Source: Escherichia phage Barry
Strand: one strand, 5' to 3'
Sequence record: LR880803
DNA length: 64,000 nt
In this document: in pieces, positions 2,350 to 5,586 of the stretch
How positions within the stretch are numbered: the first letter of the stretch is position 1
Layout: every line of letters begins with the position of its first letter
Translations under genes and position numbers: made by a program
Notes under the pieces: model-generated
Seen by the model: the letters and a program-made list of their open reading frames with translations, nothing else
Database searches by the model: none
Told to the model about the DNA's origin: nothing

Positions 2350-2425
2350 GGAAGTGTAGCAGAATGGTGATGCGGCAGACTTTTAATCTGACAGGCGATG
2401 GGTTCGAATCCCTCCACTTCTACCA
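2350..2425 (+). tRNA. tRNA-Lys (anticodon TTT), weak T-stem
   Basis: Acceptor ggaagtg/cacttct, anticodon stem caga/tctg with loop cTTTTaa, T-loop GGGTTCGAATCCC with only 3 G-C pairs, CCA encoded. Confidence 0.55.
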
Positions 2426-2429
2426 ATAT

Positions 2430-2506
2430 GGTTCAGTCGCAGATAAGGTAATGCAAGGGTCTCATAAGCCCTATGAATGTGGGTTCGATTCCCATCTGAA
2501 CCTCCA
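2430..2506 (+). tRNA. tRNA-Met (anticodon CAT), elongator-type loop
   Basis: Perfect acceptor ggttcag/ctgaacc, anticodon stem agggt/gccct with loop ctCATaa, T-arm GTGGGTTCGATTCCCAT, CCA encoded. Confidence 0.7.
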
Positions 2507-2507
2507 A

Positions 2508-2583
2508 GCTGGTATAGTTAAGAAGGTTATAACACTCCCCTGATAAGGGAACATCGGTGGTTCGATTCCACCTACCAGTACCA
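2508..2583 (+). tRNA. tRNA-Ile (anticodon GAT)
   Basis: Acceptor gctggta/taccagt, anticodon loop ctGATaa, T-arm GGTGGTTCGATTCCACC, CCA encoded. Confidence 0.7.
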
Positions 2584-2598
2584 ATTTCAATAAAGTTG

Positions 2599-2627
2599 TT
2601 GACATTGAGATGTGACTACTTTATAGT
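2599..2627 (+). promoter_or_regulatory. sigma70-like promoter (TTGACA-17-TATAGT)
   Basis: -35 TTGACA at 2599-2604, 17-nt spacer, -10 TATAGT at 2622-2627. Confidence 0.5.
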
Positions 2628-2829
2628 AACCTTAGTTTTCGTTGCGTAGCGTCTATTTTGCAAATTTAAAATAAATGCAAACGACAATGTTTTTCTGGCA
2701 GTAGCTTGATAGGCTAAACACCAGTGAGGTCTTCCAATCCCTCATCAAAGAATTTGGCGTACTCGCCCACGGTATGATTAATAAGGTGGGCATCTTTAAG
2801 GGCTTTCTAAGAGAGTCTTTAAAGATAAT

Positions 2830-2906
2830 GCACCCTTAGTTCAATTGGATAGAGCAACGGTCTTCTAAATCGTTAGTTACAGGTTCGAATCCTGTAGGGT
2901 GTACCA
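2830..2906 (+). tRNA. tRNA-Arg (anticodon TCT)
   Basis: Acceptor gcaccct/agggtgt, D-arm GTTCAATTGGATAGAGC, anticodon stem acggt/atcgt with loop ctTCTaa, T-arm ACAGGTTCGAATCCTGT, CCA encoded. Confidence 0.75.
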
Positions 2907-3007
2907 AATAGTTAGCAGATTACTTAGACGGCCTTAGCGGGTCTTCCTGTAGGGAGGTGGTCTGTATCTCATGTTTTCCAGAACATGTAAATAATCTGAG
3001 AAGAAGC

Positions 3008-3036
3008 TTGACAGTGTTGAGATAATACGGTAAGCT
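3008..3036 (+). promoter_or_regulatory. candidate promoter (TTGACA-17-TAAGCT)
   Basis: -35 TTGACA at 3008-3013; weak -10; sits just upstream of the tRNA at 3049. Confidence 0.25.
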
Positions 3037-3048
3037 TCGAATTATAGT

Positions 3049-3128
3049 ATGGGACGATGTTAAGACTCTAAGGCATGAGCAACGGCCTCCAAAACCGTTT
3101 CAAAGGGGTTCAACTCCTCCGTCCCATG
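3049..3128 (+). tRNA. tRNA-Trp-like (anticodon CCA), atypical extended D region, no encoded CCA
   Basis: Perfect acceptor atgggac/gtcccat, anticodon stem acggc/accgt with loop ctCCAaa, T-arm AGGGGTTCAACTCCTCC; ~26 nt between acceptor and anticodon stem with no clean D-stem. Confidence 0.4.
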
Positions 3129-3144
3129 CTAAAGATTGTTTCGG

Positions 3145-3231
3145 AGAGAGTGGCGGTCAACGGAGACCAACCAGCCTTGAAAACTGGTGCTGCTGGAAAC
3201 GGTACGGGTTCAACTCCTGCACTCTCTGCCA
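3145..3231 (+). tRNA. tRNA-Ser (anticodon TGA), long variable arm
   Basis: 87 nt; perfect acceptor agagagt/actctct, anticodon loop cTTGAaa, long variable arm, T-arm CGGGTTCAACTCCTG, CCA encoded. Confidence 0.7.
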
Positions 3232-3254
3232 AAATAATTTTTAAGGTGGTGATT

Positions 3255-3596
3255 ATGAAGAAAGGTTCAGTAGGTGAAATTGCTACACAATTAGCTTTCC
3301 TCAAAAGAGGTTATGAAGTATATTCACCAGCTACAGATAATGCAAAGTATGACTTTCTAGTTCACAAAGATGGTTTGATTGAAACTGTTGAGGTAAAATC
3401 AACATCAGTCAAAAGAGGTGAACTTTGGAGAGTGCAACTGAAAAGAGTTCGTTCTAACAAGAATGAAAATAGAATAATGAATTTTGATAACTCTCAAGTT
3501 GATTACTTAGCTGTTTACATTGAACCACTTGATAAAGTCGTCATCTACAAAGCTAAAGATGTCAAGTCTAAGACTGAACTTAGCTTAAAGATTTAA
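3255..3596 (+). CDS. small PD-(D/E)xK-like nuclease (possible homing endonuclease) in the tRNA island
   Basis: ATG at 3255 with SD aaggtgg; motif YDFLVHKDGLIETVEVKS resembles D..E.K; the longer track ORF from 3075 overlaps tRNA-Ser and is rejected. Confidence 0.4.
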   Translation: MKKGSVGEIATQLAFLKRGYEVYSPATDNAKYDFLVHKDGLIETVEVKSTSVKRGELWRVQLKRVRSNKNENRIMNFDNSQVDYLAVYIEPLDKVVIYKAKDVKSKTELSLKI

Positions 3597-3735
3597 AGCC
3601 AAGCTTCATTCGGATGTCGCTTTGGTATCCCTCGTGTATTGTCGTACACTGTCAAAGCACCTAGTAGGTGTCACGGAGAAGAGATAATATCAAGCTCTCC
3701 AAAGGTTCTAGTCACCGGATTAAACAAGACTATGC

Positions 3736-3759
3736 AAAGACCTATTTAGGTCTTTTTAG
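3736..3759 (+). terminator. rho-independent terminator
   Basis: Hairpin aagacct-attt-aggtctt followed by TTTTT. Confidence 0.5.
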
Positions 3760-4167: not shown

Positions 4168-4243
4168 GCTCCTATCGTATAATTGGTTATTACGGTTGCC
4201 TTGTAAGCAACTTATCAGGGTTCGAGTCCTTGTGGGAGCACCA
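4168..4243 (+). tRNA. tRNA-Thr (anticodon TGT)
   Basis: Acceptor gctccta/tgggagc, perfect anticodon stem gttgc/gcaac with loop ctTGTaa, T-arm CAGGGTTCGAGTCCTTG, CCA encoded. Confidence 0.75.
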
Positions 4244-4339
4244 ATTCAGAGGTCAAGTGAAAGACCGCTTTGAGTCAACTGAAGACCGTAACAAATTCCA
4301 CGAAGTTGAGTTAGCGGCACAACTTCAGACCTCTTTCAT

Positions 4340-4414
4340 ACTCGCTTAGTTTATATGGTAAAACATCACCCTTACAAGATGAAGAAAAAGGTTCAAGTCC
4401 TTTAGTGAGTACCA
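4340..4414 (+). tRNA. tRNA-Val (anticodon TAC)
   Basis: Acceptor actcgct/agtgagt, anticodon loop cTTACAa in a stem with one mismatch, T-arm AAAGGTTCAAGTCCTTT, CCA encoded. Confidence 0.6.
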
Positions 4415-4415
4415 T

Positions 4416-4493
4416 GTTCCAGTATCCCAATTGGCAGAGGATGCAAGCTCAAACCTTGTATTAGTGACGGTTCGAATCCGTCTTGGAACACCA
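4416..4493 (+). tRNA. tRNA-Leu (anticodon CAA), short variable arm
   Basis: 78 nt; acceptor gttccag/ttggaac, anticodon stem gcaag/cttgt with loop ctCAAac, T-arm GACGGTTCGAATCCGTC, A at discriminator, CCA encoded. Confidence 0.65.
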
Positions 4494-4498
4494 ATTTT

Positions 4499-4574
4499 GC
4501 AGGATTAGTTCAAATGGATAGAGCAACAGTCTACGAAGCTGTTAATAGGGGTTCGAATCCCTTATCCTGCGCCA
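4499..4574 (+). tRNA. tRNA-Arg (anticodon ACG)
   Basis: Perfect acceptor gcaggat/atcctgc, D-arm GTTCAAATGGATAGAGC, anticodon stem acagt/gctgt with loop ctACGaa, T-arm AGGGGTTCGAATCCCTT, CCA encoded. Confidence 0.75.
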
Positions 4575-4593
4575 ATTTAAAGAGGCTATTTAG

Positions 4594-5151
4594 ATGAGAT
4601 ATTTGAAGTATGCTTCATGGATTTTCTTAGCTTTGTTAGAGCCATTTGCAGCAATCTTAGCAGTTATCTTAGCACCTTTTGTAGTTCCATTCTACAGTGA
4701 GAAGAAAGGACACTTACCTTTCGGGTTCAGATGGATGGAGACATATGACAACCCAATTGATGGTGATGAAGGTCACGTTAAAAGATGGGCTAATATTAGA
4801 TGGATTGGTAAACTAGGTGTCTACATGCAAAGAGTCGGATGGCTCTGGAGAAACAAAGCTTATAACTTCTCTTACCATGTATTAGGAAGAGATGTAAGAG
4901 ATGTTACTAAGTGGAAAGGTAATATCAACGTAAGTTCTGACCCCGAAGATAATCAGACAGGTTATCTCCTAATGTGGAACAGTAATGCTTGGGGATTATT
5001 CGCTTTTATCCCATCAATTAAAATCTTTGGTAAACAATTTTACTGGAGAATTTATATTGGATGGAAACTAAAAAGTGTTGTCCCAGAAGAAAGAGCATTC
5101 TCAAGGGAAAGAGTTATGTTGGCATTCTTTATTCATCCACTGAGAAAGTAA
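4594..5151 (+). CDS. hypothetical membrane protein inside the tRNA island
   Basis: ORF with SD aagagg upstream of ATG; hydrophobic N-terminus (WIFLALLEPFAAILAVILAPFVV). Confidence 0.5.
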   Translation: MRYLKYASWIFLALLEPFAAILAVILAPFVVPFYSEKKGHLPFGFRWMETYDNPIDGDEGHVKRWANIRWIGKLGVYMQRVGWLWRNKAYNFSYHVLGRDVRDVTKWKGNINVSSDPEDNQTGYLLMWNSNAWGLFAFIPSIKIFGKQFYWRIYIGWKLKSVVPEERAFSRERVMLAFFIHPLRK

Positions 5152-5159
5152 AGATTTAA

Positions 5160-5235
5160 AGGGGATTAGTTTACAAGGTTAAAACCTCGGTCTTTGAAAT
5201 CGAAGAAGTTGGTTCAATTCCAACATCCCCCGCCA
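5160..5235 (+). tRNA. tRNA-Gln (anticodon TTG)
   Basis: Acceptor aggggat/atccccc with a 1:72 mismatch, D-stem gttt/aaac, anticodon stem tcggt/atcga with loop ctTTGaa, T-arm GTTGGTTCAATTCCAAC, CCA encoded. Confidence 0.65.
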
Positions 5236-5237
5236 AT

Positions 5238-5316
5238 GCTCCATTACTCCAATTGGCAGAGAGGCCAGACTTAAAATCTGTGTTATGTATCGGTTCGAAT
5301 CCGATATGGAGTACCA
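5238..5316 (+). tRNA. tRNA-Leu (anticodon TAA), short variable arm
   Basis: 79 nt; acceptor gctccat/atggagt, anticodon stem caga/tctg with loop ctTAAaa, T-arm ATCGGTTCGAATCCGAT, A at discriminator, CCA encoded. Confidence 0.6.
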
Positions 5317-5321
5317 AATTT

Positions 5322-5397
5322 AGCGGTATAGCATAACTGGCAATGCAGCAGCCTCTGAAGCTGTCCTATTAAGGTTCAAATCCTTATGCCGCTGCCA
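5322..5397 (+). tRNA. tRNA-Gln (anticodon CTG)
   Basis: Acceptor agcggta/tgccgct, anticodon stem gcagc/gctgt with loop ctCTGaa, T-arm TAAGGTTCAAATCCTTA, CCA encoded. Confidence 0.65.
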
Positions 5398-5428
5398 CTT
5401 CTAAGGATTCTTGCGAGAGTCCTTAAAT

Positions 5429-5504
5429 GTGGCCTTATCATAAACGGTAATGACCCATGCTGTGAACATGGTCTATACGGGTTCAAATCCCGTAGGTCAC
5501 CCCA
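5429..5504 (+). tRNA. tRNA-His (anticodon GTG)
   Basis: Acceptor gtggcct/aggtcac, perfect anticodon stem ccatg/catgg with loop ctGTGaa, T-arm ACGGGTTCAAATCCCGT, CCA encoded. Confidence 0.7.
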
Positions 5505-5509
5505 ATTTA

Positions 5510-5586
5510 TAGTCCAAGTAGCTTATATGGTTAAAGCGCGTGTCTGAAAAACATGAGAAGAGGGTTCAAATCCCACTGGACTACCA
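5510..5586 (+). tRNA. tRNA-Phe (anticodon GAA), acceptor/T-stem register ambiguous
   Basis: D-stem gctt/aagc, anticodon stem cgtgt/acatg with loop ctGAAaa, T-loop GGGTTCAAATCCC; tagtcca/tggacta pair perfectly but leave no discriminator before CCA. Confidence 0.5.

Follow-up and report, generated by a model that had tools for sequence, protein, structure and literature searches.

The tRNA array and its four irregular genes

The window analysed here, a stretch of 64,000 nucleotides from Escherichia phage Barry (LR880803), is a Felixounavirus genome (Felix O1-like coliphage) with 99.3 % identity to phage Tribble. Its tRNA array holds 26 annotated tRNAs covering 19 amino acids, with tryptophan the sole absentee, and a 2025 paper devoted to the tRNAs of a close relative gives the count as '26 tRNAs for 19 amino acids' (PMC12482277). 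In some deposited records tRNAs of the array are labelled 'tRNA-OTHER' or 'Pseudo'. The array also carries tRNA-like, non-tRNA RNAs beside a DUF2828/DUF7788/vWA gene. In the literature on Felixounavirus tRNAs we found no reports of expression, end-mapping, tRNA-seq or charging.

An earlier note on this DNA, made by eye, described non-canonical arms in two Lys genes, a Trp candidate and a Phe gene, and all four lie at the positions it gave:

2350..2425, + strand: tRNA-Lys(UUU); ARAGORN, Rfam tRNA 54.4 bits; A73, CCA encoded
3049..3131, + strand: candidate non-canonical tRNA-Trp gene; RNAalifold consensus, pair counts, own covariance model
3922..3997, + strand: tRNA-Lys(CUU); ARAGORN, Rfam tRNA 56.9 bits; bulged U3971 in the T stem
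5510..5586, + strand: tRNA-Phe(GAA) with irregular acceptor/T junction; ARAGORN (5511-5586), Rfam 45.0 bits

All four are kept in four genera of the Ounavirinae (Felixounavirus, Mooglevirus, Suspvirus and Kolesnikvirus) and also in genus-unassigned Pectobacterium phages. None of them forms the canonical 7/5 cloverleaf, in which an unbroken 7-bp acceptor is stacked on an unbroken 5-bp T stem; the elbow elements (T loop UUCRANY and D-loop GG) are present throughout, the four genes having GGUUC(R)A and GG. Compensatory changes were scored for the Trp and Phe genes, variation among the Lys genes being too slight for this.

Bulged stems in the Lys and Phe tRNAs

Both Lys genes exceed the 29-bit gathering score of the Rfam tRNA model (RF00005), and both have the normal two-nucleotide connector, UA, between acceptor and D stem. 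The assertion that only three pairs can form in their T arms holds in the standard register, where pairing is limited to G51-53/C61-63 and which is the one drawn by ARAGORN, but it is too strong because five pairs form once a bulge is allowed. Infernal and RNAfold both pair G48-C65 and A49-U64 and leave one U bulged, so that the T stem common to the two genes consists of five pairs and a one-base bulge, GA[U]GGG/CCCUC. The minimum-energy structure of Lys(CUU) from RNAfold has the T arm ((.(((.......))))), and the arm of Lys(UUU) is as follows:

2397-2402 with 2410-2414, + strand: Lys(UUU) T arm, G2397-A2398-[U2399 bulged]-GGG2400-2402 / CCC2410-2412-U2413-C2414; bulge visible in the Rfam alignment

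In relatives the bulged base is U or C with the neighbouring pairs unchanged, and in the Pectobacterium-phage orthologue of Lys(CUU), shorter by 1 nt, the T stem is regular. Lys(CUU) is 82 % identical to positions 2342-2426 (85 nt) and is a paralogue of the Lys(UUU) gene; both tRNAs of the pair have a 7-bp acceptor, and a single bulged pyrimidine interrupts their 5-bp T stem.

The Phe gene contains the following elements:

5510 with 5583, + strand: extra possible pair, U-A
5511-5516 with 5577-5582, + strand: acceptor helix, 6 bp (RNAfold, pair counts)
5517, + strand: bulged A in the acceptor
5518 with 5576, + strand: seventh acceptor pair, G-C
5519, + strand: U8
5562-5564 with 5572-5574, + strand: T stem, GGG with CCC; A5561 bulged, G5560 facing A5575
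5584-5586, + strand: CCA

Its score of 45.0 bits is also above the gathering score of 29, although Infernal deletes two 3′ acceptor-strand positions in aligning it to the Rfam tRNA model. The first pair of the helix can be either U5510-A5583 or A5511-U5582, and the register is truly ambiguous because nucleotide -1 is always able to pair with 73; the two competing acceptor registers noticed earlier are real. Pair counts over four lineages from four genera gave compensatory changes in 9 of 21 pairs. Among these changes the unusual seventh acceptor pair itself covaries, from G-C to U-A, and the connector that follows this shifted pair is UA. In our reading the acceptor helix is broken by a bulged A, and the T stem, of 3-4 bp, has a bulged A of its own.

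Could these irregularities be by-eye artefacts in tRNAs that are structurally ordinary? The high Rfam scores of the Lys and Phe genes would fit such a reading, but we consider it very unlikely, since the covariance-model alignments need an insertion in the Lys T stem and two deletions in the Phe acceptor, the same irregularities are seen in ARAGORN and RNAfold, and the Phe junction covaries in its irregular register. Scoring with covariance models, which had been proposed as a check, returned values well above the Rfam threshold for folds that are nevertheless not canonical. These results are in themselves ordinary, since the Lys and Phe tRNAs have annotations already and nothing but their minor structural quirks lacked a description.

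A Trp candidate with a long connector and a covarying cloverleaf

At default settings ARAGORN makes no call for the Trp candidate, and Rfam lists no RF00005 match to it, the best clan member being tRNA-Sec with 23.0 bits against a threshold of 47. A canonical fold overlooked by eye was not recovered either, the gene being unrecognised by every library model. A covariance model of our own scores it at 110 bits, with ordinary tRNAs at ≤ 38 bits, and the gene matches 258 phage records. RNAalifold independently predicts a cloverleaf. The elements of the gene and the promoter-like site before it are:

3009..3045, + strand: promoter-like hexamers upstream, TTGAGA-17-AATTAT (3017-3045) and TTGACA (3009-3014)
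3049-3056 with 3120-3127, + strand: acceptor, 8 bp if G3056-C3120 forms
3057-3065, + strand: connector AUGUUAAGA, 9 nt
3066-3068 with 3077-3079, + strand: D stem CUC/GAG, 3 bp, covarying
3069-3076, + strand: D loop UAAGGCAU, 8 nt
3081-3085 with 3095-3099, + strand: anticodon stem
3086-3094, + strand: anticodon-region loop CCUCCAAAA
3089-3091, + strand: anticodon CCA
3105-3108 with 3116-3119, + strand: T stem, 4 bp
3109-3115, + strand: T loop UUCAACU
3128, + strand: G73
3129-3131, + strand: 3′ end, CUA where CCA is expected

Among 12 distinct sequences the paired cells make up 98.3 %, and double-sided (compensatory) changes occur at 9 of 20 pairs, distributed over all four stems; 500 of 500 shuffles score lower and slid registers give 0-1 such pairs. 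Reading of the sequence agrees with the earlier description: the 7-bp acceptor is perfect, the anticodon is CCA, and 26 nt separate the acceptor from the anticodon stem. The statement that the D-arm has no clean stem is not quite accurate, since a 3-bp CUC/GAG stem is present and covaries, and for what had been called an expanded D region a better description is a small D arm preceded by an additional connector of 9 nt, combined with an acceptor branch that is probably 8/4. This connector, 11 nt long in Pectobacterium phages, compares with two nucleotides in canonical tRNAs, and AUGUUAAGA is invariant while all of the stems have turned over. Both RNAalifold and RNAfold pair G8-C65, which is invariant in the 12 distinct sequences, and because it never varies the 8/4 branch is predicted without covariation support; the alternative is a 7/5 branch with an A49.C65 mismatch. 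A canonical anticodon loop has 7 nt and is closed by a 31-39 pair; here these positions hold C.A (C.C in the Pectobacterium phages), and since they never form a standard pair the loop is formally of 9 nt, with U33, the CCA anticodon and A37 present. The variable region is 5 nt.

Elements recognised by tryptophanyl-tRNA synthetase (TrpRS) are all found in the window's copy, namely the anticodon CCA, G73, A1:U72 and G5:C68. The CCA anticodon and G73 are invariant, pair 1:72 being A-U, G.U or G-C in relatives, and the anticodon loop, G73 and CCA end are retained in Pectobacterium phages and at a metagenome locus (L086) despite changes in every stem. G-CCA is encoded in 37 of the 39 copies examined, those of the window and Tribble having G-CUA. 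Weakened stems occur in four copies with a T-stem U.U mismatch and at L086, which has two acceptor mismatches. Upstream of the gene a promoter consensus scan returned one site (TTGAGA-17-AATTAT) against 0.3 expected, and TTGACA was read directly, each being a consensus match only.

The odd genes are not present by chance, because they are conserved across lineages with compensatory changes. Of the two options left by the earlier note, functional variants and decaying copies, the first is supported for all four by their conservation and by compensatory changes, and we interpret them as conserved variants rather than as products of decay. That the four, or at least the Trp candidate and the window's copy of it, are decaying pseudogenes is highly improbable. 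The CUA in place of CCA in the window and Tribble copies, the mismatches in a few lineages and the 'tRNA-OTHER' or 'Pseudo' labels given to array tRNAs in some records could be taken that way. However, a lone CCA-to-CUA change may be repairable by CCA-adding enzyme, conservation spans Felixounavirus to Pectobacterium phages, and the Trp cells are 98 % paired with compensatory changes in four stems, the Phe gene behaving likewise. Among the records listed or opened the odd Trp allele carries no tRNA annotation, and a hypothetical-protein ORF overlies it in a few. This candidate tRNA-Trp has been missed by gene finders and in about 230 deposited genomes.

Alternative Trp alleles in related phages

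Twenty-three related phages have, at exactly the Trp locus, a 71-nt tRNA-Trp (ARAGORN; Rfam 33.2 bits) and an HNH-like ORF. The replacement extends from the first base of the odd gene to just beyond the CCA, and the odd allele is absent, from which it follows that the odd allele is not indispensable, the other replacing it in 23 genomes. This wV8-type Felixounavirus tRNA-Trp shares with the odd gene its locus, CCA anticodon, G73 and A1:U72, and differs in its 71-nt length, reduced D arm and linkage to the HNH-like ORF. Erwinia phage phiEa21-4, in which the odd allele is also absent, has a regular 76-nt 7/5 tRNA-Trp at a different position in the array, which has in common with the odd gene the anticodon arm CGGCCUCCAAAACCG including the C31.A39 mismatch. 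Neither the wV8-type nor the phiEa21-4 tRNA-Trp has the connector.

Probable function of the irregular tRNAs

We think it probable, on the strength of the comparative sequence evidence, that the four genes are working tRNAs whose irregular acceptor/T branch has been inherited and selected, and that 3049-3131 encodes the phage's tRNA-Trp; the Trp candidate is most likely a functional, non-canonical tRNA-Trp. Its probable 8-bp acceptor and 4-bp T stem would preserve the usual branch of 12 bp, with the invariant 9-nt connector as an addition, a small D arm retaining GG and, from position 26 to 76, an anticodon arm, a variable loop and a T arm of ordinary kind. Transcription of the gene would take place as part of the array, with its own promoter-like site as a possible start, and the transcript would be processed by RNase P and 3′ trimming. 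The CUA end of the window's copy could be repaired to CCA by the host CCA-adding enzyme, a precedent being the tRNAs of phage T4 whose genes lack the CCA. Identity in E. coli TrpRS is set by the anticodon and G73, with A1:U72 and G5:C68 as minor elements, and the enzyme contacts only the first five acceptor pairs (PMC12135181). The host enzyme would thus be expected to charge this tRNA by reading the anticodon, G73 and those five pairs rather than the D arm, and the charged tRNA to decode UGG. The connector of 9-11 nt and the 3-bp D stem could disturb the L-shape. As to why the acceptor branch is irregular, our best guess is altered recognition by the host factors that read it, such as tuning of EF-Tu affinity or escape from tRNA-cutting defence nucleases.

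An unlikely alternative is that the Trp-like RNA is a structured tRNA mimic acting outside translation, as decoy or partner of a host nuclease, or of a phage protein, for example the Ro60-like DUF2828/vWA protein whose gene lies just upstream, with the connector as a binding handle. The invariance of the 9-nt connector through turnover of every stem would suit this reading, as would the failure of all library tRNA models to accept the gene, the occurrence in the array of other tRNA-like non-tRNA RNAs beside the DUF2828/DUF7788/vWA gene, and the fact that the published 8/4 'extra-loop' tRNA was uncharged in vitro. A decoy, however, would have no need of a full TrpRS identity set, yet CCA with U33/A37, G73, A1:U72, G5:C68 and the CCA end are conserved; a recognisable tRNA-Trp takes the place of the gene one-for-one, and Trp is exactly the amino acid that the array lacks.

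Less likely again, and something of a long shot, is that the remodelled D region changes the role of the Trp tRNA and is not just tolerated, through phage-controlled UGA read-through or altered decoding or with the connector serving a dual-use tRNA as a handle for a phage or host protein. Both Trp alleles at the locus have abnormal D regions, the 83-nt form through its invariant connector and the wV8-type of 71 nt through a D stem that is defective. In the Hirsh suppressor of E. coli a single D-arm change lets a CCA anticodon read UGA, and these observations together make UGA read-through or altered decoding conceivable.

If a functional tRNA-Trp is indeed encoded here, the phage tRNA set would be complete for 20 amino acids, in a group of classic phages widely used for typing and therapy and with hundreds of deposited genomes. 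A cultivable E. coli phage would then also offer the first extra-loop tRNA of the 8/4 type whose amino-acid identity is clear, and the odd architecture of this tRNA could be tested directly with RNase P, CCA-adding enzyme, TrpRS, EF-Tu and the ribosome.

Comparison with known tRNAs

Bacterial tRNA-Sec (Rfam RF01852) is the best-scoring library model for the Trp gene because of the long acceptor helix. An assignment as tRNA-Sec or allo-tRNA was rejected, with 23 against 47 bits, an anticodon CCA and not UCA, and neither a long variable arm nor a 6-bp D stem. A long variable arm and a long D stem capped by a tetraloop characterise allo-tRNAs, unlike the 5-nt variable region and the 3-bp D stem with its 8-nt loop found here. 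E. coli tRNA-Trp shares with the odd gene the anticodon loop CUCCAAA, G73, A1:U72 and G5:C68 but differs in having U31-A39, a 7/5 branch, a 2-nt connector and a 4-bp D stem.

The closest resemblance in branch architecture is to the (8/4) tRNAs (Mukai et al. 2017, PMC5389517; reviewed by Krahn et al. 2020, PMC7609411), in which a longer acceptor and a shorter T stem add up to 12 bp, as predicted for the Trp gene. They also occur in phage tRNA clusters and in polycistrons of irregular tRNAs, and they show bulged nucleotides in short T stems (A51a) such as we find in Phe and Lys (PMC5389517). The published (8/4) tRNAs are specific for Ser, His, Cys or Sec, or have an unknown identity, and Trp is not mentioned among them (PMC5389517). 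An extra-loop subgroup has an additional stretch between acceptor and D stem, corresponding to the Trp connector AUGUUAAGA; its published examples come from soil metatranscriptomes and are U73/GCU and uncharged, as against G73/CCA in the Trp gene. None of the E. coli enzymes tried on the sole published 8/4 tRNA with an extra acceptor-D loop charged it, and 8/4 tRNAs are functional in E. coli translation (PMC5389517).

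The tRNA array and its phage group

Over its first 8 kb the window shares 99.3% identity with Escherichia phage vB_Eco_Tribble and matches 365 phage records, nearly all of them from Ounavirinae (Felix O1-like myoviruses). Using ARAGORN we identified 26 tRNA genes on the + strand, a set that agrees with the annotations of both Tribble and typing phage 1, and all 26 encode their 3′ CCA. These genes cover 19 amino acids, Trp being the sole absentee; a 2025 paper reported 26 tRNAs for 19 amino acids, by tRNAscan-SE 2.0, in the close relative Shigella phage Sf14 (PMC12482277). The features considered here are as follows.

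1257-6511, + strand: array of 26 tRNA genes
2350-2425, + strand: tRNA-Lys(UUU)
3049-3131, + strand: unannotated, probable non-canonical tRNA-Trp gene (the Trp candidate, or odd gene)
3922-3997, + strand: tRNA-Lys(CUU)
5510/5511-5586, + strand: tRNA-Phe(GAA)

Elsewhere in the array, ARAGORN draws the first tRNA-Met (1510-1586) with 1-72 unpaired and one extra base past the acceptor, and the tRNA-Sec model outscores the tRNA model (29.6 and 33.2 bits) for Tyr (1750-1837) and Ser(UGA) (3145-3231). Between tRNA-Ser(UGA) and tRNA-Leu(UAG) lies an ORF (3255-3596) for a PD-(D/E)XK endonuclease (Pfam PDDEXK_5, 3.1e-17), which is probably a mobile homing-type nuclease within the array because it is missing at the corresponding place in typing phage 1.

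A conserved cloverleaf at the Trp candidate

The Trp candidate is passed over by ARAGORN at default settings and has no RF00005 match, while the tRNA-Sec model gives it 23 bits against a threshold of 47. We found it in 258 phage records, 230 of which cover at least 80% of the query, and Pectobacterium phages match it at 76% identity in an alignment limited to the element itself. No tRNA is annotated at this place among the odd-gene records listed or opened, including those annotated with tRNAscan-SE. RNAalifold independently predicts a cloverleaf, which from the anticodon stem to the 3′ end has the dimensions of a normal tRNA.

Table. Fold of the Trp candidate as predicted by RNAalifold, with the stem variants found among its copies
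Acceptor: eight pairs, the eighth being G8-C65
Connector (between acceptor and D stem): nine single-stranded bases, AUGUUAAGA
D arm: three-pair stem, eight-base loop with GG; variants CUC/GAG, CAC/GUG, CAU/GUG, CGU/ACG
Anticodon arm: five-pair stem, loop CCUCCAAAA; variants AACGG/CCGUU, GUAAG/CUUAC, GUAGG/CCUAC, ACUUG/CAAGU
Variable region: five bases
T arm: four-pair stem, loop UUCAACU, then G73 and CCA; variants GGGG/CCUC, UGGG/CCUA

Across 12 distinct sequences, three of them divergent variants from metagenomes, pairing holds in 98.3% of cells and compensatory changes occur in 9 of the 20 pairs. None of 500 shuffles was as good, and 0-1 compensatory pairs remained when the partners were shifted by 1-3 columns. 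Unlike the stems, the connector, anticodon loop, T loop, G73 and CCA end are unchanging, the terminus reading G-CCA in 37 of 39 copies and G-CUA only in the window and Tribble. Since the eighth acceptor pair shows no variation, the 8/4 branch (8-bp acceptor and 4-bp T stem, the canonical branch being 7/5) is a prediction of the energy models. Connector bases 9-11 can pair with the D loop in every case and, as the changes there are one-sided only, we hypothesize rather than conclude that a pseudoknot forms. At relaxed settings ARAGORN folds 3044-3129 differently, as ‘(Ala|Cys) agca’ with mismatches in the stems, an alternative that was rejected because the covariation supports the RNAalifold cloverleaf instead.

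Probable tryptophan identity and allelic replacement

We consider the Trp candidate probably to be a functional tRNA-Trp. Its assignment as the phage tRNA-Trp rests on the presence of the TrpRS identity set, the lack of any other Trp gene in the array, an anticodon arm shared with a regular tRNA-Trp and a swap at the locus. All elements that E. coli TrpRS is known to recognise are carried, namely anticodon CCA, G73, A1:U72 and G5:C68; in the co-crystal, contacts of the enzyme are limited to acceptor pairs 1-5 and the anticodon (PMC12135181). The regular tRNA-Trp of Erwinia phage phiEa21-4 (Kolesnikvirus), a phage with no copy of the odd gene, has CGGCCUCCAAAACCG in its anticodon arm in common with the Trp candidate, C31.A39 mismatch included. 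This regular gene (24578-24653 of its record) ends in G-UCA, not G-CCA.

The strongest evidence for Trp identity is replacement at the locus. The odd gene is absent from 23 Ounavirinae records, e.g. wV8, typing phages 8, 11, 12 and 15, TH10, SUSP1 and Sf19. The opened record of E. coli O157 typing phage 11 (1566-2055) has in its place a 71-nt tRNA-Trp, followed by an HNH-like ORF of 134 aa with weak Pfam matches (E about 0.006), and the other 22 records show 95-100% identity to this 71-nt gene. The replacement extends from the first base of the odd gene to just beyond its CCA, and the two genes are alternative alleles of one locus. The 71-nt allele is called by ARAGORN and reaches 33.2 bits with the Rfam model, with a reduced D arm and defective D stem; across the 23 records it is annotated variously as tRNA-Trp, tRNA-OTHER, Pseudo or nothing.

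To determine the spread of the Trp architecture we scanned IMG/VR, JGI/ENA metagenomes and 185,579 species genomes (one per bacterial species), filtering matches with our own covariance model. All true matches are close relatives of this phage group, either on contigs of 18 kb to genome size (~86-90 kb) or on short ones with the order Arg(UCU)-Trp-Ser(UGA), a spread that is a lower bound because the scan patterns needed conserved sequence and distant relatives could escape. None of the 185,579 bacterial species genomes yielded a match after pattern scan and covariance-model filter. Literature searches located no usable transcriptome or tRNA-seq data for these phages, and no paper in the searchable literature describes the odd Trp gene.

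Irregular Lys and Phe tRNAs

Both Lys genes, whose coordinates had been correctly placed in the earlier note, score well with the Rfam tRNA model (54.4 bits for UUU and 56.9 bits for CUU; threshold 29). The T stem of only three G-C pairs proposed there holds in the standard register, as in the ARAGORN drawing, but gives way to five pairs with a bulge in Infernal and RNAfold. Because Infernal inserts one base in the 5′ strand, with a G-C and an A-U pair outside, and RNAfold gives the same bulged fold for Lys(CUU), the T stem is GA[U]GGG/CCCUC, in which a single bulged base interrupts five pairs. As paralogues, the Lys genes show 82% identity across 85 nt, upstream spacer included. Among the collected Felixounavirus, Mooglevirus and Suspvirus copies the T arm is identical with the single exception of one G51-to-U copy, the bulged base being U or C depending on the copy. 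The Pectobacterium-phage Lys(CUU) orthologue has the 5′ half in common, a regular T stem and one base less, and the Lys genes of the Erwinia phage are regular, a distribution from which we read the bulge as a maintained, lineage-specific feature.

For Phe the Rfam tRNA model reaches 45.0 bits only with two 3′ acceptor-strand positions deleted. An alignment of four lineages (window, Michonne, EcSzw_1 and phiEa21-4) shows a six-pair acceptor helix with covariation at four of the six pairs, then a conserved bulged A, then a base that pairs with the one immediately 3′ of the T stem and switches between G-C and U-A. The T stem is GGG/CCC with a bulged A, continued by C-G in Mooglevirus and Kolesnikvirus or by G opposite A in the window; the 7/5 reading (G49-C65) was rejected as a general structure because it leaves just three pairs in Mooglevirus and Kolesnikvirus. 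In total 97.6% of cells are paired, with two-sided changes at nine pairs. The second acceptor register noticed earlier, starting at 5510, retains its standing since in each of the four lineages position 73 has a possible partner in the base 5′ of the gene (U-A, U-A, U-G and C-G).

Y RNA-like elements and a Ro60-like gene

Directly upstream of the array of tRNAs and Y-like elements, positions 1-1091 hold the 3′ portion of a gene that matches Pfam DUF2828 (4.9e-17) and DUF7788 (2.9e-43) and, weakly, vWA; it is labelled ‘RNA-binding protein’ in RefSeq, and we take its architecture to be Ro60-like. Compared with the intact gene annotated in Tribble, the window copy requires a frame change near 240, so it contains either a frameshift of 1 nt or an error of sequencing.

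Four spacer elements (1421-1503, 1588-1658, 1976-2059 and 2063-2204) have common ends, NNCA-GAA-GACC... / ...GGUC-U-GNN, which RNAfold closes into one stem type with a GAA/U internal loop. All four are kept in Mooglevirus and Suspvirus, where their interiors vary, and the identical pattern search found none in Pectobacterium or Erwinia phages; they appear to be a group of Y-RNA-like RNAs. Inside the fourth, 2100-2195 forms a circularly permuted tRNA-like module in the order anticodon-like hairpin, T arm (GAAGG-UUCGAUU-CCUUC), acceptor-like hairpin and D arm, of which the acceptor-like hairpin covaries across genera (ACUCGGC/GUCGAGU, ACCCUUC/GAAGGGU, ACACG/CGUGU). The module matches no Rfam family except for a partial tRNA match of 20 bits, and resembles YrlA-type Y RNAs (PMC4201824).

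Proposed working and comparison with known irregular tRNAs

The established part of the case for the Trp candidate comprises the cloverleaf with its conservation and covariation, the presence of the identity elements and the allelism with the 71-nt gene, and a promoter-like site (consensus match) lies upstream at 3017-3045. The gene would be transcribed within the array, processed at its 5′ end by RNase P and trimmed at its 3′ end. Phage T4 tRNAs without an encoded CCA have it rebuilt by the host enzyme, and the CUA copy of the window may be restored in this way. Host TrpRS would then charge the tRNA, which would decode UGG.

The Lys, Phe and Trp irregularities fall at or beside T-stem pairs 49-65 to 51-63, the pairs that set EF-Tu affinity. 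Bacterial defence nucleases that cut tRNAs include PARIS AriB, acting on tRNA-Lys, Thr and Asn, and retron Eco2, which nicks acceptor stems. Our preferred, speculative explanation is that the irregular acceptor/T branch alters recognition by EF-Tu or by defence nucleases. The phage has its own Lys(UUU) (2350-2425), Thr(UGU) (4168-4243) and Asn(GUU) (1665-1741), the three main AriB targets; compared with E. coli near the 40/41 cleavage site, phage Lys has U41 and G42 while Thr and Asn have G39.

The earlier observation of irregular tRNAs was largely right, and of the two explanations offered, functional variants or decaying copies, we reject decay. The irregularities of Lys and Phe are genuine but modest; the valuable part is the Trp candidate, a conserved, unannotated, structurally unusual and probably functional tRNA-Trp that falls short of the Rfam thresholds for tRNA and for tRNA-Sec and carries the TrpRS identity set. 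Acceptor branches of the 8/4 and 9/3 types have been described, among others in Ser and His tRNAs of phage clusters, there is precedent for a bulged A51a within a four-pair T stem, and soil metatranscriptomes have yielded 8/4 tRNAs in which an extra loop separates acceptor and D stem, the tested example of which the E. coli enzymes used could not charge (PMC5389517, PMC7609411). The Trp gene is like these known tRNAs in outline architecture and differs in its amino-acid identity, in having neither a long variable arm nor a long D stem, and in its home in cultivable coliphages.
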